A stretch of 32,000 nucleotides of DNA from Candidatus Velamenicoccus archaeovorus (GTDB taxonomy: Bacteria; Omnitrophota; Gorgyraeia; Velamenicoccales; Velamenicoccaceae), in assembly GCF_004102945.1 (NCBI RefSeq), contig NZ_CP019384.1:1290001-1322000 (forward strand), written 5' to 3'. The notes beneath the pieces are model-generated. The model was not told where the DNA came from, made no database searches, and saw only the letters and a list, made by a program, of their open reading frames with translations. Position 1 is the first letter of the stretch, and each line of letters starts with the position of its first letter. Positions 9,702-30,784 of this stretch are shown here, one piece after another. The translations under genes and the position numbers were made by a program.

Positions 9702-9830
9702 AGTCAACCCATATTCCCCGGCCTCGGCCTGCCCTTCGGGCAAGGCCAGGGCCGGAGCTTGTTTCGGGTTACTCTAAGCGGCCACAACATTCTTGCGCCC
9801 TAAAGGGCGGAGCTTTAGGCCGCGCAGAGT
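9702..9830. repeat. structured intergenic repeat, copy A (129 nt)
   Basis: It aligns by eye with 22460-22573 in the same orientation. There are about nine differences outside one replaced hairpin. Conserved stems are CTCT..GCGGCC/GGCCGC..AGAG and GCCC-TAAA-GGGC. Confidence 0.75.
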
Positions 9831-9855
9831 GAAAAACGGCTGTGCCGTTTTTCAC
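9829..9855 (-). terminator. argS terminator hairpin overlapping the stop codon
   Basis: GTGAAAAACGGC (9829-9840), loop TGT, GCCGTTTTTCAC (9844-9855). This is a perfect 12-bp inverted repeat with A/T tracts; the argS stop is at 9852-9854. Confidence 0.55.
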
Positions 9856-16238: not shown

Positions 16239-16278
16239 TGTCGTCAAGGAGGCAGGAAACCAAAAAAAGAAAAACGAA

Positions 16279-16351
16279 AATCGACAATCGAAAATAGACC
16301 GCAATCGAGAAAAACTTCCTAATATCTCATCTCGATTTTCGATTCTCGATT
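16279..16351. repeat. array of AATCGA / TCGATT hexamers in inverted arrangement (7-nt phasing)
   Basis: AATCGA occurs at 16279, 16286 and 16303. TCGATT occurs at 16332, 16339 and 16346. It lies between the tRNA terminator hairpin and the hypothetical membrane-protein gene. Confidence 0.55.
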
Positions 16352-16356
16352 GCTCT

Positions 16357-16389: not shown

Positions 16390-16416
16390 CCAGAGAGGGA
16401 ATTGAACCCCCGACGC
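16387..16416 (-). repeat. 30-nt exact duplicate of the tRNA-Phe 3' end (att-like direct repeat / tRNA fragment)
   Basis: TGCCCAGAGAGGGAATTGAACCCCCGACGC at 16387-16416 is identical to 16601-16630. The segment covers the variable loop, T arm, 3' acceptor strand and discriminator. Confidence 0.9.
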
Positions 16417-16600
16417 GTCGCTTGCGCTCCCCATAGGAGACAACCTACGGTTTTCTCCTATGGCGTCCGCCTTAACACTGAAGGCGGACTGTCACCTCTT
16501 TCCCTCAAAAATATGGAATTGAGGGAAGGTTTCCCTCAAACTCCCTTCATGCGTCTATGATTCAAACTCGTCTTGAACCAATACGTCGAGAAAATAAAAG
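16417..16600 (-). mobile_element. 184-nt ORF-free, hairpin-dense insert between tRNA-Phe and its duplicated 3' end (possible remnant or non-autonomous integrative element)
   Basis: It is bounded by the 30-nt direct repeat. Perfect stems lie at 16431-16463 (10 bp) and 16465-16489 (9 bp), and there is a TTCCCTCAA/TTGAGGGAA/TTCCCTCAA triad at 16500-16539. The mobile-element interpretation is inference. Confidence 0.35.
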
Positions 16601-16673
16601 TGCCCAGAGAGGGAATTGAACCCCCGACGCATGGATTTTCAGTCCATCGCTCTACCGACTGAGCTATCTGGGC
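16601..16673 (-). tRNA. tRNA-Phe (anticodon GAA), CCA not encoded
   Basis: GCCCAGATAGCTCAGTCGGTAGAGCGATGGACTGAAAATCCATGCGTCGGGGGTTCAATTCCCTCTCTGGGCA folds as a standard cloverleaf. Stems are acceptor GCCCAGA/TCTGGGC, D GCTC/GAGC and anticodon ATGGA/TCCAT, with anticodon loop CTGAAAA. Confidence 0.95.
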
Positions 16674-16742
16674 GATGATCACAAAAAACAGACTTATATC
16701 AAAATCTATGTCGGTCGGGACCGACTTCCGCCTCGGCCTTGC

Positions 16743-16773
16743 CCTCGGCCTGCCCTTCGGGCAAGGCCAGGGC
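16743..16773. repeat. 31-nt GC hairpin module identical to 9722-9752
   Basis: CCTCGGCCTGCCCTTCGGGCAAGGCCAGGGC is present here and inside repeat copy A. Confidence 0.8.
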
Positions 16774-16791
16774 GGACCAGCCTACGGCTGG

Positions 16792-16804
16792 GAGCTATCT
16801 GGGC
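16792..16804 (-). repeat. 13-nt duplicate of the tRNA-Phe 5' end
   Basis: GAGCTATCTGGGC at 16792-16804 is identical to 16661-16673. That segment is the 5' acceptor strand, U8/A9 and the 5' D-stem strand. It lies 118 nt upstream of the tRNA in tRNA orientation. Confidence 0.6.
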
Positions 16805-16828: not shown

Positions 16829-16851
16829 AAATTTTTTCGAAGAAAAAATTT
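16829..16851 (-). terminator. 10-bp A/T-only hairpin abutting the duplicated tRNA-Leu 3' end
   Basis: AAATTTTTTC (16829-16838), loop GAA, GAAAAAATTT (16842-16851), immediately next to the copy at 16852. Confidence 0.5.
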
Positions 16852-16869
16852 ATGCCGGGAGAGGGAGTT
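16852..16869 (-). repeat. 18-nt exact duplicate of the tRNA-Leu 3' end plus 1 flanking nt (att-like direct repeat)
   Basis: ATGCCGGGAGAGGGAGTT at 16852-16869 is identical to 17011-17028. The segment runs from the T loop to the discriminator, plus one trailing nt. Confidence 0.85.
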
Positions 16870-17011
16870 TTCCTCCCCCGCCTCGCATTCGCTCGGCTCC
16901 ACCGGAACCGGGCGCCCCTCGCTCGAACCAGTGGCGCTCAGGGTCGCCTTCAACTCCCGTTCTGCTGTAATCTATCCTTTTCGTCGAACACAAATACTAT
17001 AGCTAAAAAAA
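16870..17011 (-). mobile_element. 142-nt ORF-free insert between tRNA-Leu and its duplicated 3' end
   Basis: It is bounded by the 18-nt direct repeat. The end next to the tRNA is AT-rich and the distal end is GC-rich. The mobile-element interpretation is inference. Confidence 0.35.
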
Positions 17012-17095
17012 TGCCGGGAGAGGGAGTTGAACCCTCAAGCCCTTACGAGCGTAGCGCCCTGAACGCTATGTGTTTGCCAATTTCACCATCCCGGC
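17012..17095 (-). tRNA. tRNA-Leu (anticodon CAG), type II with long variable arm, CCA not encoded
   Basis: GCCGGGATGGTGAAATTGGCAAACACATAGCGTTCAGGGCGCTACGCTCGTAAGGGCTTGAGGGTTCAACTCCCTCTCCCGGCA. Stems are acceptor GCCGGGA/TCCCGGC, anticodon TAGCG/CGCTA and T GAGGG/CCCTC, with anticodon loop TTCAGGG. Confidence 0.93.
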
Positions 17096-17109
17096 GTTAA
17101 GCAGCAAAA

Positions 17110-17138
17110 AGTATAACCCGTTGCGCCCCGACTGTCAA
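17110..17138 (-). promoter_or_regulatory. sigma70-type promoter for tRNA-Leu
   Basis: On the minus strand: TTGACA (17138-17133), a 17-nt spacer, TATACT (17115-17110). The tRNA 5' end is 14 nt downstream. Confidence 0.6.
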
Positions 17139-17199
17139 ATTGTTTATGGGGTCCCGCCCGTGCTGAAGCAAGGGGTTCCCGCTCCAGCGACATACTTGA

Positions 17200-17244
17200 G
17201 CGGCCAAAGCCATCCGTGGCCTAAGGGCCGCGGTCTTTGGCCGC
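17200..17244. repeat. long GC hairpin downstream of mgtA, resembling the 3' half of the 9702/22460 repeat
   Basis: The outer stem is GCGGCCAAAG (17200-17209)/CTTTGGCCGC (17235-17244), with inner CCGTGGCC-TAAG-GGCCGCGG. It shares AGCGGCCA...CTAA(A)GGG...CTTT(A)GGCCGC with copies A and B. Confidence 0.5.
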
Positions 17245-17283
17245 ACAAGTATAGAAGCGCGCTGCCCGGAAAAAAGCCAAGGC

Positions 17284-19842
17284 CTATTCATACCCGTATT
17301 TATCTATAAATTTGCTCTTCACCGTCTGGACGACCCATAAATACGCGGCCACAATGCAGACAAGGGCCGCAAAATACAACGGCGGCGGCTGGACGAAACC
17401 GAAATATTTGGACAAGGGCGTGAAGGGGATCAAGAGGCCGATCGTAACGATATAAATCGACGAAAACATCAAGAACGGACTGGGCCTGCTTTCGACAAAC
17501 GGGATCTTGCCCGTGCGGATGACGTAGATGACCAGGGTCTGGGTGATCAGCGATTCCAAAAACCACCCTGTATGAAAAAGCTTCGGCGATGCGTTAAAAA
17601 GGAACAAAAGGACGCCGAAGGTCACAAAATCGAATACGGAACTGATGGGTCCGAAAAAAAGCATGAACTTCTTGATATAACCCACATTCCAGGGCCGGGA
17701 CCGCAGCAGATACTCATCATCGACCTCGTCGGTGGGAACGGCGATCTGTGACAGGTCGTAAAGAAAATTGTTCAAGAGGATCTGGATCGGCAGCATCGGC
17801 AGGAAAGGCAAGCAAAGGCTGGCGCCCGTCATACTGATCATGTTGCCGAAATTGGAGCTCGACCCCATCTTGATGTATTTGAGGATGTTGCCGAACGTCC
17901 TGCGGCCTTCAGTCACCCCCTCGGCCAGGACAATGAGACTCTTTTTCAACAGAATGATATCCGCCGATTCCTTGGCGATATCCACCGCATTGTTGACGGA
18001 AATGCCGACATCGGCCGCCTTCAGCGCCGCCGCGTCATTGATACCGTCCCCCAGATAGCCGACGACGTGCTTGTTTCTGTGAAGCGCCCGGATGACCCTC
18101 TCTTTTTGCAAAGGCGATAGCCGCGCAAAGACAGAAGTCACCTCCACCAGCTCCGCCAATTCCTCGTCGCTGATCTTGTCGATCGCGTCGCCCGTAGCCA
18201 GGCCCATGACACTGATGCCGACGTCGATACAAATCTTGCGCGTCACCAGCTCATTGTCTCCTGTCAGCACCTTTAATTCTATCCCCAGACGCCGCAAGGC
18301 CTCGATGGTCTTCTTGGTGGTCGGCTTTGGCGGATCCAGGAAAGCGATGTACCCCTTGAGCACCAGCCCCTGCTCGTCGTCTTTCGTATAGCGTTCTTTG
18401 GAGATGTCCATACTCCTGTAAGCGACAGCCAGGACCCTGAACCCTTCGGCGCTAAGACGGTCGCATTCTTCCTTAAGGTCCGTCAGGATCATCTGGTTGA
18501 TCTCGAGGGTCTCGCCTTCCAACTCGTAGGTCGCGCACCGCTTGAATATCTCCTCGGGAGCACCCTTGGAGATCAACGTATGCCTGCCTTCGGAGCCCAC
18601 GACAACCGACATCATCTTCCTGGAAAAATCAAACGGGATCTCGTCGATCTTGGCATAATCCTCGATCTTCAACTTCTCATGCTTCAAGATAGCCCGGTCA
18701 AGGATGTTTTTAAGGCCCGTCTGGTAATAGCTGTTGATGAAGGCCAGCTTAAGGACCTCGTCGTCTTCCTGCCTGACCACATCGCAGTGTTTCTCCAGGA
18801 CGATCCTGTCGAGTGTGAGCGTGCCGGTCTTGTCCGTGCACAAGACATTCATGGCCCCGAAATTCTGGATGGAGTTCAGCCTCTTGACGATAACGTCTTT
18901 TTTGGACATCGCCAGGGCGCCTTTGGACAGATTGATGGCGACGAGCATCGGCAGCATCTCGGGCGTGAGACCTACGGCAACGGCCAGAGAAAAAAGCAGG
19001 GCCTGAACGATGTTGCCTCTTAGGAAAGCGTTGACGGCAAATATGACGACGACCAAGATGAGCATGAAACGGATCATCAGCCACGTAAAACTGCGAATAC
19101 CTTTGTCGAAACTGCTCTCGATCTGGATGGAAGCCAACCGCCGGGAGAGCTCGCCGAACTGGGTGGCGACCCCGGTCTTCACCGCGACCCCGAGGCCGGT
19201 GCCGCTGACGACGCTGGAACCCATGAAAGCGATGTTCGTCATGTCCACCGGAGATTGCGTTTTCGGATCAGCGGGGCCCGCCGTCTTCTCGACGGGAAAG
19301 GACTCTCCCGTCAAAGACGCCTGATTGATGAAAAGATCCTTGCAGAAGATGATCCGCAGGTCCGCCGGGATCATGTCGCCGGCAAAAAGATCCACGATAT
19401 CGCCGGGGACGATCTCCCTGATCGGGATCTCCCGCGCCCGGCCGTTACGATAGACCGTTGCCGTGGCGCGGACCATCTCGCTCAATTTTTCCGCCTCGCG
19501 GCCTGCGCGGTGCTCCTGCACAAAAGACAAAAGGACGCTGATCAACGCCATCAGGACGACAAGAAGAGCGCTGATCTTCTCTCCGAAAAACAGGGAAAAA
19601 CCGGCAATCACCAGAAGGACGATGACGAGAGGATTTAAAAACCTGGAAAGGATCTCGAAAAGAACGGCCCTCTTTTTCTTTTTGGCGGGTTCGTTGTAAC
19701 CGTAGACCGACAGACGCTCCCGGGCCTCATGATCCGTCAGCCCTTTTTGGGACGTGGCGAACTTCTCGAAAAGCGCTTCGTGGGCGCAACGGGCGTAATC
19801 GAAATCGGAAAGGCCGGAGATAAGAGATAGTTTGTTGTCCAT
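17284..19842 (-). CDS. mgtA: magnesium-translocating P-type ATPase
   Basis: 852 aa with CTDKTGTLT (phosphorylation site), TGDN and GDGINDAAAL. Overall architecture and termini are MgtA/MgtB-like. Confidence 0.92.
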   Translation of the reverse strand: MDNKLSLISGLSDFDYARCAHEALFEKFATSQKGLTDHEARERLSVYGYNEPAKKKKRAVLFEILSRFLNPLVIVLLVIAGFSLFFGEKISALLVVLMALISVLLSFVQEHRAGREAEKLSEMVRATATVYRNGRAREIPIREIVPGDIVDLFAGDMIPADLRIIFCKDLFINQASLTGESFPVEKTAGPADPKTQSPVDMTNIAFMGSSVVSGTGLGVAVKTGVATQFGELSRRLASIQIESSFDKGIRSFTWLMIRFMLILVVVIFAVNAFLRGNIVQALLFSLAVAVGLTPEMLPMLVAINLSKGALAMSKKDVIVKRLNSIQNFGAMNVLCTDKTGTLTLDRIVLEKHCDVVRQEDDEVLKLAFINSYYQTGLKNILDRAILKHEKLKIEDYAKIDEIPFDFSRKMMSVVVGSEGRHTLISKGAPEEIFKRCATYELEGETLEINQMILTDLKEECDRLSAEGFRVLAVAYRSMDISKERYTKDDEQGLVLKGYIAFLDPPKPTTKKTIEALRRLGIELKVLTGDNELVTRKICIDVGISVMGLATGDAIDKISDEELAELVEVTSVFARLSPLQKERVIRALHRNKHVVGYLGDGINDAAALKAADVGISVNNAVDIAKESADIILLKKSLIVLAEGVTEGRRTFGNILKYIKMGSSSNFGNMISMTGASLCLPFLPMLPIQILLNNFLYDLSQIAVPTDEVDDEYLLRSRPWNVGYIKKFMLFFGPISSVFDFVTFGVLLFLFNASPKLFHTGWFLESLITQTLVIYVIRTGKIPFVESRPSPFLMFSSIYIVTIGLLIPFTPLSKYFGFVQPPPLYFAALVCIVAAYLWVVQTVKSKFIDKYGYE

Positions 19843-19844
19843 GC

Positions 19845-21167
19845 TTAAAGGGTATCGATAAAATCGTCAAAATCGATATTCTCGCCGAGGGCTTCTTTGG
19901 TCGCCCGGATCCTGCGACCGTAGCCGGGATGGGTCTTAAAATAAGACAGGGCCTGCGGGGGCTCCTTCTTCTGCCTCTTGCGGAGTTTGTCCAGAAACTC
20001 AATCATCCCCTGGGGGTTATATCCCGCCCTCTTGGCGTAAATCGCGCCCATCCCGTCGGCCGTAAGCTCGTCTTCCTGGGAATAGCCGGAAAGCAAAAAA
20101 GCGTAGGCCATCTGCACGCCCTGCGCCGCTTCCGCATTTTTCGTCGCGCCGGCGAGGATCGTCAGGATATTATAGCCCCAGATCGCCTGGAGGCGCTTGA
20201 TGCTGTGGCGCGCCACGATATGCGCCACCTCGTGGGCGACGACAGCGGCCAGCTCATCGTCCGTATCCGCCACCGTCATCAGATTCTTGAAAATATAGAT
20301 GTAGCCGCCCGGCAGAGAAACCGCGTTCACGAGGTCTTTGTCCTTCGGGTCCTCGATGATGCGGAAGCGGTATGTCAGGTCGTGGCGGTCGCTGGCCTGG
20401 GCGACCTTGGCGCCGACGCGATCCAGGCGCTCGTTCATCTGGGGATCCTGGACGACCGTATAATTCTTCTCGACCTGCGCGGCCAGGGAATCGCCGATGG
20501 CCACCTCCCTTTCCGTCGAATACATCATCGTATCTTCTTTGTGCGTCGCCAGGTTGTATTCCGTCGAGCAGCCATTGACGGCAAAACCGCACAATACCAG
20601 CAAAAGAGAAACGCCGAATTTCTTGAGCATTACGCGCAGCCGGGCGATCGGCAGACCCACCACATTGAAATAGCATCCGCGGATACGACGGATGAACGAC
20701 CCTCCCAGGCCCTGGACATCGAAACCTCCCGCCTTGTCCAAAGGCGAGACCTTGCGGAAATACTGCGCGATCTCCCGGTCGCTCAAAGGCTCCATCTCGA
20801 TGCGCGTCTCTTCTACTTCCGTCATCTCCCGCCCGCTGGCGGCATCGATGACGGCGATGCCGGTATAAAGGACATGGGGCCTATGCGAGAGTCTCTTGAG
20901 CATCGCGCGCGCCTCTTTCAATGACGCGGGCTTGCCGAAAGCCCTGCCATCCTGCCAGACAAGGGTATCGCATCCGACGACAATCCCCTTCTTGACGCGC
21001 CGAGCCGCGTCGCGTGCTTTCAGCAAGGCATTGGCCGCCACCGTCCGCGCCGGATGCCGCACAGCGTCCGCATGCTCTTTGACGCGCGCAGGCATCACCC
21101 TGAATTTCACGCCGAGAGCCTCGAGCAATTTTTTCCTGGCCTTGGATTTCGAAGCAAGGATCAACAT
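19845..21167 (-). CDS. single ORF: Maf-like nucleoside-triphosphate pyrophosphatase fused in frame to an M48-family metallopeptidase lipoprotein
   Basis: The N-terminal ~185 aa are Maf-like (LILASKSKARKKLL...GGFDVQGLGGSFIRRIRGCYFNVVGLPIARL). An internal ATG at 20630 then opens MLKKFGVSLLLVLCGFAVNGC (lipoprotein-type signal), followed by an M48 domain with HEVAHIVARH. No stop codon separates the two parts. I chose the start at ATG 21167, 8 nt after a GGAGG. The M48 part may also be translated on its own from 20630. Confidence 0.8.
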   Translation of the reverse strand: MLILASKSKARKKLLEALGVKFRVMPARVKEHADAVRHPARTVAANALLKARDAARRVKKGIVVGCDTLVWQDGRAFGKPASLKEARAMLKRLSHRPHVLYTGIAVIDAASGREMTEVEETRIEMEPLSDREIAQYFRKVSPLDKAGGFDVQGLGGSFIRRIRGCYFNVVGLPIARLRVMLKKFGVSLLLVLCGFAVNGCSTEYNLATHKEDTMMYSTEREVAIGDSLAAQVEKNYTVVQDPQMNERLDRVGAKVAQASDRHDLTYRFRIIEDPKDKDLVNAVSLPGGYIYIFKNLMTVADTDDELAAVVAHEVAHIVARHSIKRLQAIWGYNILTILAGATKNAEAAQGVQMAYAFLLSGYSQEDELTADGMGAIYAKRAGYNPQGMIEFLDKLRKRQKKEPPQALSYFKTHPGYGRRIRATKEALGENIDFDDFIDTL

Positions 21168-21199
21168 AACCATCGCCTCCAAAACTCAGAATTATCGCG

Positions 21200-22459: not shown

Positions 22460-22573
22460 AGTCAACCCATATTCCCCGGCCCAAAGGCCCAAATGCCGGG
22501 GCTTGTTTCGGGTACCTCTAAGCGGCCACAAAATTCTCAGCCCTAAAGGGCGGAGCCTTAGGCCGCGCAGAGT
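22460..22573. repeat. structured intergenic repeat, copy B (114 nt)
   Basis: It aligns with 9702-9830 in the same orientation. The variable hairpin here is CCCCGGC (22474-22480)/GCCGGGG (22495-22501). The repeat ends 9 nt from the flavoprotein start codon. Confidence 0.75.
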
Positions 22574-22611
22574 AAATAAGTAACGGATTTGGTTTAGGCG
22601 GAGGGTTTTTT

Positions 22612-27654: not shown

Positions 27655-27850
27655 AGAAATAACCAATAACCCTGCCTGCCGGCAGGCAGGCAAGATACAA
27701 GATCCAAATAAATCCCAATAACCAACGGCCAAATGATCAAACACGGTTTTTATTTTTTACCTAGTTATTGAATTTTTGTTTTTTGGTCATTGTTTGCCTG
27801 CCCTGCGGGCGTAGCCCGCGAAGGCAGGTTTCTTGGGATTTGGTTATTCA
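27655..27850. repeat. about 195-bp composite imperfect palindrome (MITE-like): terminal inverted repeats, two GCCTGCC-stem hairpins, AT-rich centre
   Basis: The left end AGAAATAACCAATAACCCTGCCTGCC (27655-27680) matches the reverse complement of the right end, TGAATAACCAAATCCCAAGAAACCTGCCTT (27850-27821). A perfect 20-nt palindrome CCTGCCTGCCGGCAGGCAGG lies at 27671-27690 and a nested hairpin at 27796-27829. The inner pair is CAAATGATCAAA / TTTTGGTCATTG. Confidence 0.5.
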
Positions 27851-29608: not shown

Positions 29609-29721
29609 ACTTCGTTGGCAAACGGGGTTAATCCTTCACACCTGCCTGCCCTGGTCAAAGGCAGGCGGCCGGATAACTTACGTCGTTCGTCCTGCGGACA
29701 GACTCCGTAAGTTATGGCCTC
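29609..29721. repeat. direct repeat copy 1 (113 nt = 81-nt unit interrupted by a 34-nt hairpin cassette)
   Basis: 29609-29632 plus 29667-29721 match 29788-29811 plus 29814-29868 with 3 substitutions. Confidence 0.85.
29633..29666. repeat. 34-nt GCCTGCC-stem hairpin cassette inserted in repeat copy 1
   Basis: CCTTCACACCTGCCTGCCCTGGTCAAAGGCAGGC replaces the dinucleotide TC of copy 2. The stem is GCCTGCC (29644-29650)/GGCAGGC (29660-29666). The same stem sequences occur at 27796-27829. Confidence 0.7.
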
Positions 29722-29787
29722 CCTGAAAAATCACCTCTTTCTACCCCGATTCGCCTAAGACGCGTCGTAAATTTCTTTCAGAAATTT

Positions 29788-29868
29788 ACTTCGCTGGCGA
29801 ACGGGGTTAATTCGGCCGGATAACTTACGTCGCTCGTCCTGCGGACAGACTCCGTAAGTTATGGCCTC
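29788..29868. repeat. direct repeat copy 2 (81 nt), ending 1 nt before the thiL stop codon
   Basis: ACTTCGCTGGCGAACGGGGTTAATTCGGCCGGATAACTTACGTCGCTCGTCCTGCGGACAGACTCCGTAAGTTATGGCCTC. The internal stem is ATAACTTACG (29820-29829)/CGTAAGTTAT (29853-29862), extended by GGCC/GGCC. Confidence 0.85.
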
Positions 29869-29869
29869 A

Positions 29870-30784
29870 TTAAAAATGTCTGAATTTCGGCGGCGGCAGT
29901 TTTTTCAAAAGGCCGCCGCGGGTACATATCCGCACCCCTTTAAAAGCAGTCGTCATACGGCCGATGGGATAGAAATGGAACCGGCCGGCTGAATACGCCG
30001 ACAGGCGGCGTGCCTGCGCAGGCGCAAGCGTAAAGAGCAATTCGTAATCCTCGCCATCACCCAGGGCTGCTGCCATCGTCTTGACGCCCGGATTCCTTGG
30101 GATATCATCCTCGAAGATCTCGGCCCCCAGGCGGCTGGCTTCGCACAAACGGGAAAGGTCCATGCCCAAGCCGTCCGAGAGATCCATCATGGCGTTGACC
30201 TTGAAATTTTTCACCAAAAAACGGGCCTCTTTGACCCGGGGAACAAAAAACAGATGGCGGCCGCTTCTCTGGGAACCGCCCAAGGGGCCGGAGACAAAAA
30301 TAGTGTCGCCGTCTTTGGCGCCGCTGCGTAAGACAAGGTTCTTCTTCTTGACCTCCCCCGTCATGAATACGTCGATCACGAGACGGTCGCTGCGGTTTAT
30401 GTCTCCGCCGATGACGCTGACGCCGTATCTGCGGGCGCATTGCCCGAGCCCGGCAAACAAGGCCTGGGCGCGGCGCGCCAGGTCTTTGCGGGGCAAACCC
30501 GCAGAAACGAGGGCGAATCTCGGCTCGCCGCCCATAGCGGCGATGTCGCTTACTGAGACGGCGACGGCCTTATAGCCGACCCTTCTCAGATCTTCCCCTT
30601 TCTTAAAATGCACAGATTCCACGAGCATGTCAACCGTCAGGAGACCGTAGAGCTCTTTCGGCCCCCGGATGACAGCCGCGTCATCGCCCGGCCCGACAAC
30701 GACTGAAGGGTCGGCTGTCCTGAACCGGCGGACGGCTTGAGCGACAAGGGCCCATTCTTTAATGTTTTTGAGATAGGCGTCCAT
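29870..30784 (-). CDS. thiL: thiamine-monophosphate kinase
   Basis: 304 aa from the AIR-synthase-related family, with GPGDDAAV and VSVSDIAAMGG motifs. Confidence 0.92.
   Translation of the reverse strand: MDAYLKNIKEWALVAQAVRRFRTADPSVVVGPGDDAAVIRGPKELYGLLTVDMLVESVHFKKGEDLRRVGYKAVAVSVSDIAAMGGEPRFALVSAGLPRKDLARRAQALFAGLGQCARRYGVSVIGGDINRSDRLVIDVFMTGEVKKKNLVLRSGAKDGDTIFVSGPLGGSQRSGRHLFFVPRVKEARFLVKNFKVNAMMDLSDGLGMDLSRLCEASRLGAEIFEDDIPRNPGVKTMAAALGDGEDYELLFTLAPAQARRLSAYSAGRFHFYPIGRMTTAFKGVRICTRGGLLKKLPPPKFRHF

Follow-up and report, generated by a model that had tools for sequence, protein, structure and literature searches.

A short gene-less cassette bounded by a copy of the tRNA-Leu 3′ end in an Omnitrophota-like bacterium

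Downstream of the tRNA-Leu(CAG) gene in a chromosomal segment of an Omnitrophota-like bacterium, whose nearest public relatives are annotated as Omnitrophota metagenome-assembled genomes (MAGs), lie 142 nucleotides (nt) of non-coding DNA that end in an exact copy of the last part of the tRNA. We call the whole 32,000-nt stretch analyzed the window, and the 142-nt insert cassette A. Gene-less cassettes of this kind, with boundaries resembling the attachment (att) sites of integrating elements, recur at tRNA ends. The explanation that we favor, while regarding it as somewhat short of probable, is an att-type insertion at tRNA-Leu of a short gene-less cassette from an exchangeable set, probably moved by an integrase in trans and now constrained as a trailer.

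According to this explanation, the 18-nt repeat would be the far end of a 142-bp gene-less cassette that entered tRNA-Leu(CAG) by att-type recombination within the segment from the T loop to the 3′ end. The cassette would have supplied its own tRNA 3′ end and trailer, so that the tRNA stayed intact, and the host's original 3′ end with its flank would have been displaced 160 nt downstream. The likely catalyst would be a tRNA-targeting tyrosine integrase acting in trans; such integrases appear to have been active at this locus in relatives. Cassette A would be one of several short (73-185 nt), hairpin-rich families that share the tRNA-Leu/tRNA-Phe slot, are exchanged between lineages and are amplified or lost by recombination between repeats. 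It would now lie, under constraint, in the transcribed trailer or spacer of the tRNA-Leu/tRNA-Phe unit. We infer that an integrase catalyzed the 3′-side events, that the cassettes have always been small and that they are transcribed.

The tRNA-Leu repeat and its locus

Feature coordinates are window positions, the locus lies on the minus strand, and L-numbers are labels of the sequence loci compared with the window. Read along that strand, the P-type ATPase gene and a strong sigma-70-type promoter precede tRNA-Leu(CAG), the 142 non-coding nt and the 18-nt copy. These are followed by a 10-bp A/T hairpin, a 13-nt copy of the tRNA-Phe 5′ end, hairpins and tRNA-Phe. Beyond tRNA-Phe lie another 180 non-coding nt and then a 30-nt copy of its 3′ end; a 15-bp AT hairpin and an AATCGA inverted-repeat element come next, and after them a gene for a 228-aa protein that has no Pfam match. 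The features on which the argument turns are listed here.

17110..17138, minus strand: sigma-70-type promoter of tRNA-Leu (TTGACA, 17-nt spacer, TATACT; 11/12 consensus positions)
17012..17095, minus strand: functional tRNA-Leu(CAG) (ARAGORN; Rfam tRNA, 50.9 bits), the last 17 nt of which (17028->17012) are the proximal repeat copy
16870..17011, minus strand: cassette A, 142 nt, non-coding, starting with TTTTTTT and ending in ...GAATGCGAGGCGGGGGAGGAAA, with homologues at the same junction
16852..16869, minus strand: distal copy, from the T loop of tRNA-Leu (A57) to the discriminator plus one T, 18/18 identity
16829-16838/16842-16851, no strand: perfect 10-bp A/T-only hairpin adjoining the distal Leu copy, a lineage-specific insertion
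16600..16673, minus strand: functional tRNA-Phe(GAA), with no convincing promoter of its own
16420..16599, minus strand: cassette B1, 180 nt, strongly hairpin-forming, at the tRNA-Phe 3′ end (fold z-score -7.5)
16390..16419, minus strand: 30-nt distal copy of the tRNA-Phe 3′ end; the flank beyond it is that of the insert-free L082
16262..16389, no strand: 15-bp AT hairpin and AATCGA inverted-repeat element, forming the tRNA-Phe host flank, with the element being an insertion in its own right

The repeat, AACTCCCTCTCCCGGCAT, stands at 17028->17011 and again at 16869->16852 with no mismatches, leaving 142 nt (17011->16870) between the two copies, and it starts at A57 in the T loop (GAGGG TTCAACT CCCTC). 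When up to three mismatches are allowed, the window holds three matches to it, the third being the tRNA-Phe 3′ copy, against 0.03 expected from 100 shuffles. Across 58 tRNAs from 115 sequences, copies of tRNA ends of at least 12 nt are found repeatedly in the real flanks and never in reversed ones. The Leu repeat is also present in the independent assemblies L001/L083/L098, L002/L099, L104 and L112/L116-118, and is therefore no assembly artefact; its layout is common to NCBI, ENA, JGI and Logan assemblies of several lineages. Only the shortness of the repeat speaks for chance or artefact, and we give that explanation negligible weight.

An earlier sequence-only reading had described the tRNA-Leu, the 142-nt insert and the 18/18 copy at these coordinates, with which ARAGORN, Rfam and our repeat search agree. 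It had also correctly placed the start of the copy in the T loop and its far end against the perfect A/T-only hairpin (16829-16851). However, it had taken this hairpin as part of a fixed four-part unit. The hairpin follows the Leu copy only in the window and L104, and is missing there in L001, L002 and L112; in L001 a related AT hairpin stands after the functional tRNA-Leu instead. Related AT palindromes lie exactly after a real or copied tRNA 3′ end in L001 (Leu), L082 (Phe) and L015 (Ser). The AT hairpin entered the host flank as an insertion of its own, outside the cassette event. The 10-bp hairpin was not scored as a terminator.

The tRNA-Leu promoter is kept in L001, L002, L082, L112 and L125. 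Since tRNA-Phe lacks a convincing promoter, it is probably co-transcribed with tRNA-Leu.

Flanks, conservation and turnover of the cassettes

The flanks of the tRNA-Phe cassette reveal how such an insert may have arrived. In L081/L082/L084, which lack the 180-nt cassette of the window, tRNA-Phe is directly followed by the AT hairpin and AATCGA element that in the window stand beyond the distal tRNA-Phe copy. Thus, for tRNA-Phe, an unoccupied site and a displaced copy with host flank are both clear (L082 versus window). Meanwhile, in the window and L001 the sequence behind the functional tRNA-Phe is CTTTTATTTT, the flank that tRNA-Phe natively has in the insert-free L087, L090, L110 and L123, and behind the distal copy stands the flank of the local host (an AT hairpin as in L082, or CCATTTTTTT in L001/L002). 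A foreign trailer on the proximal side and the host flank on the distal side show that the cassette brought its own tRNA 3′ end and displaced that of the host, which is an att-type (Campbell) outcome rather than the target duplication of a staggered cut. On this comparison the flank topology is att-like. By the same logic the distal Leu copy would be the displaced original 3′ end of tRNA-Leu, although none of the copy-less orthologues (L125; the inverted L082, L105 and L089) provides a flank-for-flank match to an unoccupied tRNA-Leu site.

Repeats start at T-loop position 57/58 for cassette A at tRNA-Leu in four lineages, for tRNA-Phe in L002, L104 and L112, for tRNA-Ser in L015 and for Escherichia coli tyrV, and the 5′ tRNA fragments found at these loci end in the D loop. 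Repeat lengths vary from 16 to 53 nt, even inside one family.

Syntenic loci were fetched via the ATPase, via the 228-aa protein in metagenomes and via exact-protein look-ups of its homologues. The neutral yardstick was identity to the window at synonymous (4-fold) sites, which is 0.79 for L001, 0.81 for L082, 0.62 for L002 and 0.37-0.48 for more distant lineages. Cassette A (junction sequence GAATGCGAGGCGGGGGAGGAAAACTCCCTCTCCCGGCA; left end TAGCTATAGTATTTGTGTTCGACG) occurs at an identical junction, ...GGGGGAG[G/C]AAA followed by ACTCCCTCTCCCGGCA, in four Omnitrophota lineages: the window with its sibling strain L104; L002/L099; L001/L083/L098, which have the right end only, the left part being an AT hairpin and AATCGA element; and L112/L116-118, whose 228-aa protein is 71% identical to that of the window. 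The distal Leu copy is identical in all four. The right half of cassette A is GC-rich and hairpin-rich, and its AT-rich left half, in line with the att-like topology, weakly resembles the native tRNA-Leu trailer of L125 (z = 3.6).

Between the window and L002, 111 of 115 positions of cassette A are identical over the aligned right part (96.5%), compared with 62% at 4-fold sites. Outside the copy, window and L112 still share 62/93 positions (67%; shuffle z = 19), with 4-fold sites saturated. The cassette lies far above neutral identity, and the comparison therefore does not support a freely decaying scar; in this sense the word 'scar' of the sequence-only reading has to be given up.

What is conserved is not a protein. 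The only open frame in the 142-nt cassette is antisense, and all nine window/L002 differences (9/9) are non-synonymous in it, so that a coding role was ruled out. No Rfam family matches the cassette at gathering or permissive thresholds. A search for the E. coli RtT family (RF00391) gave no match at E<=5 in the window region or at E<=1 in relatives, whereas the E. coli control gave four matches of 133-138 bits; the one sub-threshold sX4 match, on L015, spans the tRNA itself. A decayed tandem tRNA was likewise ruled out, as neither cassette resembles the rest of its tRNA (Leu cassette p = 0.87, Phe cassette p = 0.81), while the E. coli RtT unit passes the same test (p = 0.002). Two of the nine window/L002 substitutions fall in paired columns of predicted stems and both keep the pair. 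In a wider alignment RNAalifold found one compensatory pair and an unfavorable covariation term, the sequences being too few and too much alike. The predicted cassette hairpins are weakly supported.

Several finer resemblances were tried and dropped. A tRNA 'minihelix' formed by the copy and the preceding G-rich stretch pairs no better than shuffled G-rich sequence. Within the cassettes, partial copies of the T arm in inverted orientation (GGGAGTTGAA in Leu; TTGAA..GACGCATG in Phe) are at chance level for a 1.4-kb region. A TCCGCC...GGCGGA hairpin is enriched, yet as a generic stable hairpin of many lineages it is no family marker.

The distribution of cassette A is patchy and does not follow relatedness: L112 has it at 71% protein identity, whereas L082 (92%), L105 and L125 lack it. 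The tRNA-Leu of L125 is oriented as in the window and has no distal copy. The copy is also missing where the gene is inverted in L082/L084, L105/L106 and L089. In L110, also inverted, only ~80 nt separate tRNA-Leu from the adjoining Maf gene, leaving no room for an insert, and the inverted tRNA-Leu of L108 bears a different insert of 185 nt with a 29-nt repeat. The tRNA-Leu 3′ flank of L082 has no homology to cassette A and was rejected as its source. No second copy of cassette A or B1 turned up anywhere but at tRNA ends, in the 32 kb of the window or the 1.15 Mb of related loci.

The inversions are an observation in their own right. A segment of ~140 nt comprising promoter and tRNA-Leu (window 17012-17138) is inverted relative to tRNA-Phe in L082, L089, L090, L105, L108 and L110, with A/T-rich runs at both boundaries. 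Its orientation is independent of relatedness (inverted in L082, at 92%; not in L112, at 71%), which suggests repeated inversion.

At tRNA-Phe the slot is held by at least three unrelated cassette families, B1, B2 and C, making at least four families overall, with inserts of 73-185 nt at the two tRNAs. B1 is found in the window and L001, B2 in L089 and L112 (z = 49), and C in L104 and L125 (z = 21.5), with a weaker likeness in L002. Neither B1 and B2 nor A and B share significant similarity. L087, L090, L105, L108, L110 and L123 have no 3′ insert at tRNA-Phe. Turnover reaches down to sibling strains: L104 is 97.9% identical to the window over 8.9 kb and has C where the window has B1. The Leu and Phe cassettes combine as A+B1 in the window, A+C in L104, A′+B1 in L001, A+C-like in L002 and A+B2 in L112. 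B1 is also significantly similar to the tRNA-Leu insert of L108 (z = 12.7); one family can therefore occupy two tRNAs, bounded each time by the local tRNA end. Copy number changes as well, since L116 (1584-1900) has two tandem B2 units and L112 (3313-3475), from a different metagenome sample, has one beside an identical neighboring protein.

The claim that a recurrent mechanism rather than a random duplication is at work gains strong support from at least eight independent tRNA-end-bounded inserts at tRNA-Leu and tRNA-Phe in relatives. The pattern extends beyond these two genes, and insert-free alleles exist. On the 3′ side of its tRNA-Ser, a TA06 genome (L015 4257-4650) has an insert of 78 nt whose repeat measures 53 nt, and an Elusimicrobia genome (L052 5900-6265) has two tandem 148-nt units before tRNA-Pro, on its 5′ side, that are 5′ fragments with hairpins in the D loop. 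In L015 the second tRNA-Ser copy is interrupted, where the tRNA ends, by an AT hairpin together with three tandem repeats of 32 nt.

Competing explanations and known systems

Integrases do use this locus. L104 (482-9688; GCA_041890195.1, JBEEQD010000910.1) carries a 9.2-kb phage-like element inside tRNA-Phe, at the point corresponding to window 16633. Its GC content is 49% versus 55.5% for the host, and it encodes small open reading frames (ORFs), a large terminase (TerL), an HTH_17 protein and a 378-aa tyrosine integrase (PF00589, E = 1.9e-39). The element lies between copies of a 41-nt repeat that comprises tRNA-Phe positions 1-41. The intact tRNA-Phe of L104 adjoins the integrase gene and is severed from the host promoter. 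An integrase also lies just upstream of tRNA-Phe in L086 and in one contig that encodes P0013. Known integrase attB sites run from the T loop to the 3′ end, with a D-loop class on the 5′ side (preprint 10.1101/2020.11.02.365908; PMC1762012), and the T-loop-to-3′-end and 5′-end-to-D-loop boundaries seen here match both classes. Repeats of tRNA islands are reported to be 15-221 bp long, in a survey of islands of at least 3.5 kb from which smaller inserts were filtered out (preprint 10.1101/2020.11.02.365908).

Accordingly, the integrase origin proposed in the sequence-only reading has only indirect support. The att-like flanks, boundaries at integrase sublocations and integrase-bearing element in the sibling's tRNA-Phe agree with it; however, that element uses the anticodon loop and a 5′ repeat, none was found at tRNA-Leu, and the 3′ inserts are gene-less. 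The link between integrases and the 3′ cassettes is circumstantial.

A number of observations weigh against att-type insertion by an integrase in trans. All three integrase-bearing elements lie on the 5′ side of tRNA-Phe, a different sublocation from that of the cassettes, and in the loci compared none was seen at tRNA-Leu or on the 3′ side of either tRNA. None of the ~9 distinct 3′ inserts contains a gene or pseudogene, no inserts of intermediate size were seen, and a circle of 90-215 bp would be ill suited to a tyrosine recombinase. Four exact-pattern scans of viral contigs for the Leu junction and the cassette cores found no attP-like free form, and BLAST against 50,697 phage records matched tRNAs only. 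In L002, L112, L089 and L125 the repeat continues for 5-10 nt, and in L015 for 35 nt, into flanking sequence peculiar to the lineage; this requires resident elements or concerted evolution, that is, homogenization by unequal crossing-over, which does occur, as the tandem doubling in L116 indicates. Finally, cassette A is strongly conserved, as would be expected of a functional trailer no less than of a mobile element.

The last point leads to a non-mobile alternative, in which an old local duplication of the tRNA 3′ end has been kept as a conserved RtT-type trailer for a useful RNA or for processing, its copy held identical by unequal crossing-over between the repeats. It would account for the identity of cassette A with L002 and L112 well above 4-fold sites, for a junction (...GGGGGAG[G/C]AAA, then ACTCCC) unchanged in all four lineages and for substitutions between window and L002 that avoid predicted stems. 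The cassette is probably inside the Leu-Phe transcript, because tRNA-Phe has no good promoter of its own, and E. coli tyrV has the same layout, to which the amplification in L116 may be added. Yet there is no RF00391 match, the window cassettes are not decayed tRNA as the E. coli unit is, and covariation is nearly nil. The patchy distribution runs against relatedness, unrelated Phe families occur even in sibling strains, and the flank topology demonstrates the import of foreign trailers. We therefore consider this alternative unlikely, though a serious contender.

A classical scar, left by a full-size prophage or island that integrated at the T loop of tRNA-Leu and was later deleted down to its arm ends between attL and attR, would also fit the repeat geometry and flank topology. 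Integrase-bearing elements are present at the locus in relatives, and tRNA fragments derived from integrated elements are well documented (PMC9897764). It is improbable here, as the same near-total deletion would be needed in at least eight independent events, no partly degraded island turned up among ~20 alleles, and neutral decay predicts 62% identity where cassette A shows 96.5% between window and L002. The tandem doubling in L116 and the sharing of cassettes between tRNA-Leu and tRNA-Phe fit it poorly. We give still less credence to a small transposon-like element, akin to miniature inverted-repeat transposable elements (MITEs) or repetitive extragenic palindromic (REP) sequences, or to a templated repair insertion, in which a long staggered cut duplicated the tRNA end. 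Repeats that include lineage-specific flank (27 nt for L112 Leu, 27 nt for L112 Phe, 26 nt for L002 Phe, 53 nt for L015 Ser) favor it, and REP-like palindromes do move in this genome (the 31-nt unit at 9722 and 16743; the 21-nt palindrome at 27671). However, repeat length ranges over 16-53 nt, cassette A has no terminal inverted repeats, cassettes A and B1 occur at tRNA ends alone in the window and the 1.15 Mb of related loci, and a foreign native tRNA trailer as proximal flank is unexpected from a staggered cut.

Att-type insertion thus remains our preferred explanation, and it shares several features with known tRNA-targeted elements. As with those that use a T-loop attB, such as mycobacteriophage Ms6 and the Klebsiella group I.a islands, the intact tRNA here is on the promoter side (PMC1762012; preprint 10.1101/2020.11.02.365908). 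The displaced 3′ end with host flank is at the opposite end, one site is contested by different inserts, and relatives have unoccupied alleles. Unlike these islands, the insert is 142 bp, carries no integrase or other gene and is conserved beyond neutral expectation, and no attP-bearing parent was found in the viral-contig scans or phage BLAST.

The E. coli tyrT-tyrV/RtT arrangement (rttR, RF00391) has the same architecture of a tRNA followed by a non-coding unit that ends in a T-loop-to-3′-end copy. In MG1655, tyrV is followed by tandem 178-bp units, each ending in a 19-nt T-loop-to-CCA copy and matching Rfam RtT, compared with a unit of 160 nt in the window. A preprint cites earlier work for the release of rtT RNA from the tyrT transcript (10.1101/2024.07.17.603846). 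Unlike RtT, the window cassettes fail the RF00391 model and share nothing with the rest of their tRNA, and several unrelated families, differing between sibling strains, use one slot. Because there is neither a model match nor a decayed-tRNA signal, the likeness is one of architecture rather than family membership.

Cis-mobilizable elements (CIMEs) are flanked by att sites, lack an integrase and are mobilized by a related integrative and conjugative element (ICE), as in the ICESt1/CIME system of Streptococcus thermophilus; they are kilobases long and bear genes. Cassette A is similarly a recombinase-less insert between putative att sites, beside a site used by integrase-bearing elements, but it is gene-less and 142 bp long, and the integrase-bearing elements found are located on the 5′ side of tRNA-Phe instead of in the Leu T loop. 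With REP sequences, bacterial interspersed mosaic elements (BIMEs) and MITEs the cassettes share GC-rich hairpins, and some modules of the locus recur (9722-9752, 27671-27691) and insert into the loops of other hairpins. Cassette A, in contrast, is unrepeated in the available sequence, has no terminal inverted repeats and is tied to the tRNA-end duplication.

A bolder possibility, which we consider rather unlikely, is that these inserts form an undescribed class of miniature, gene-less, hairpin-rich integrative cassettes. They would be attP-sized (~90-215 bp including one repeat), carry a replacement tRNA 3′ end, depend on integrases in trans, be exchanged among Omnitrophota and other uncultivated phyla, and be retained as trailer RNAs.

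Other insertions at the locus and implications

The remaining features of the locus lie upstream of tRNA-Leu and of tRNA-Phe.

19842->17284, minus strand: P-type ATPase gene
16792..16804, minus strand: copy of the first 13 nt of tRNA-Phe (positions 1-13), with hairpins and then AGTCGGT beyond it
16726->16720, minus strand: AGTCGGT, tRNA-Phe positions 14-20, beyond the inserted hairpins
16674..16791, minus strand: hairpin cluster upstream of tRNA-Phe, holding a 31-nt REP-like unit (16743-16773)

The tRNA-Phe 5′ fragment (window 16706-16804) consists of positions 1-13, two inserted hairpins and positions 14-20, and is also found in L002, L085/L105 and L087. Window and L087 are identical over the 35 nt compared, though synonymous sites are saturated, and hairpin 1 of the fragment shows a compensatory change (CCAGCC/GGCTGG versus CCCGCC/GGCGGG).

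The AATCGA/TCGATT inverted-repeat element (~95 nt) usually follows an AT hairpin (window 16262-16356, L001 8776-8850, L082 3876-3965); in L085/L105 it follows tRNA-Phe without the hairpin. It seems to move from one tRNA 3′ end to another, since it stands behind tRNA-Phe in the window, L082 and L085 and behind tRNA-Leu in L001. The 31-nt REP-like hairpin unit is present twice with 100% identity (9722-9752, 16743-16773), and there are two-copy intergenic repeats of ~85 nt (9751-9836, 22495-22579) and 64 nt (29666-29729, 29813-29876). A 21-nt palindrome, CCTGCCTGCCGGCAGGCAGG (window 27671-27691), recurs in the loop of a cassette-A hairpin of L001 and twice in L097. At L001 9260-9318, the distal tRNA-Phe copy has its T loop interrupted by a 55-nt insert of two hairpins, with GCGTCGGGGGTT on one side and CAATTCCC on the other, without target duplication. 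In all, these loci show three places where a palindrome has inserted into the loop of a hairpin or of a tRNA. The stretch from the ATPase stop codon to the tRNA-Leu promoter contains a GC-rich hairpin insertion of ~110 nt (17179-17259; 18-nt arms, 94% complementary) that is specific to the window and absent from L001 and L002.

The P-type ATPase gene (17284-19842) is absent here in L105, L108, L110, L112 and L125, where Maf-M48 directly adjoins tRNA-Leu, and its homologues (63-78% identity) are scattered over MAGs labeled as many phyla, archaea included, which suggests that the gene was acquired horizontally beside the tRNA locus. Window 19845-21182 is one ORF fusing Maf-like and M48 peptidase domains, and the fusion is kept in L105, L108 and L112.

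tRNA genes are classic landing sites for phages and genomic islands. Surveys normally drop inserts under a few kilobases, and here an att-like layout surrounds inserts of 73-185 bp. These gene-less inserts comprise several unrelated families, differ between sibling strains and undergo tandem doubling, and one is conserved between lineages despite saturated synonymous sites. Annotators should not automatically take copies of tRNA ends near tRNA genes as marking the edges of lost islands. If the inserts are selected trailer RNAs, the isolated E. coli RtT case would be extended to distant phyla, with comparative material. If they are mobilized by integrases in trans, they would be a new kind of hitchhiking element; were the class of miniature cassettes real, they would play for integrases the role that MITEs play for transposases, and the long-puzzling RtT repeats of E. 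coli would represent an old and decayed case of that process.

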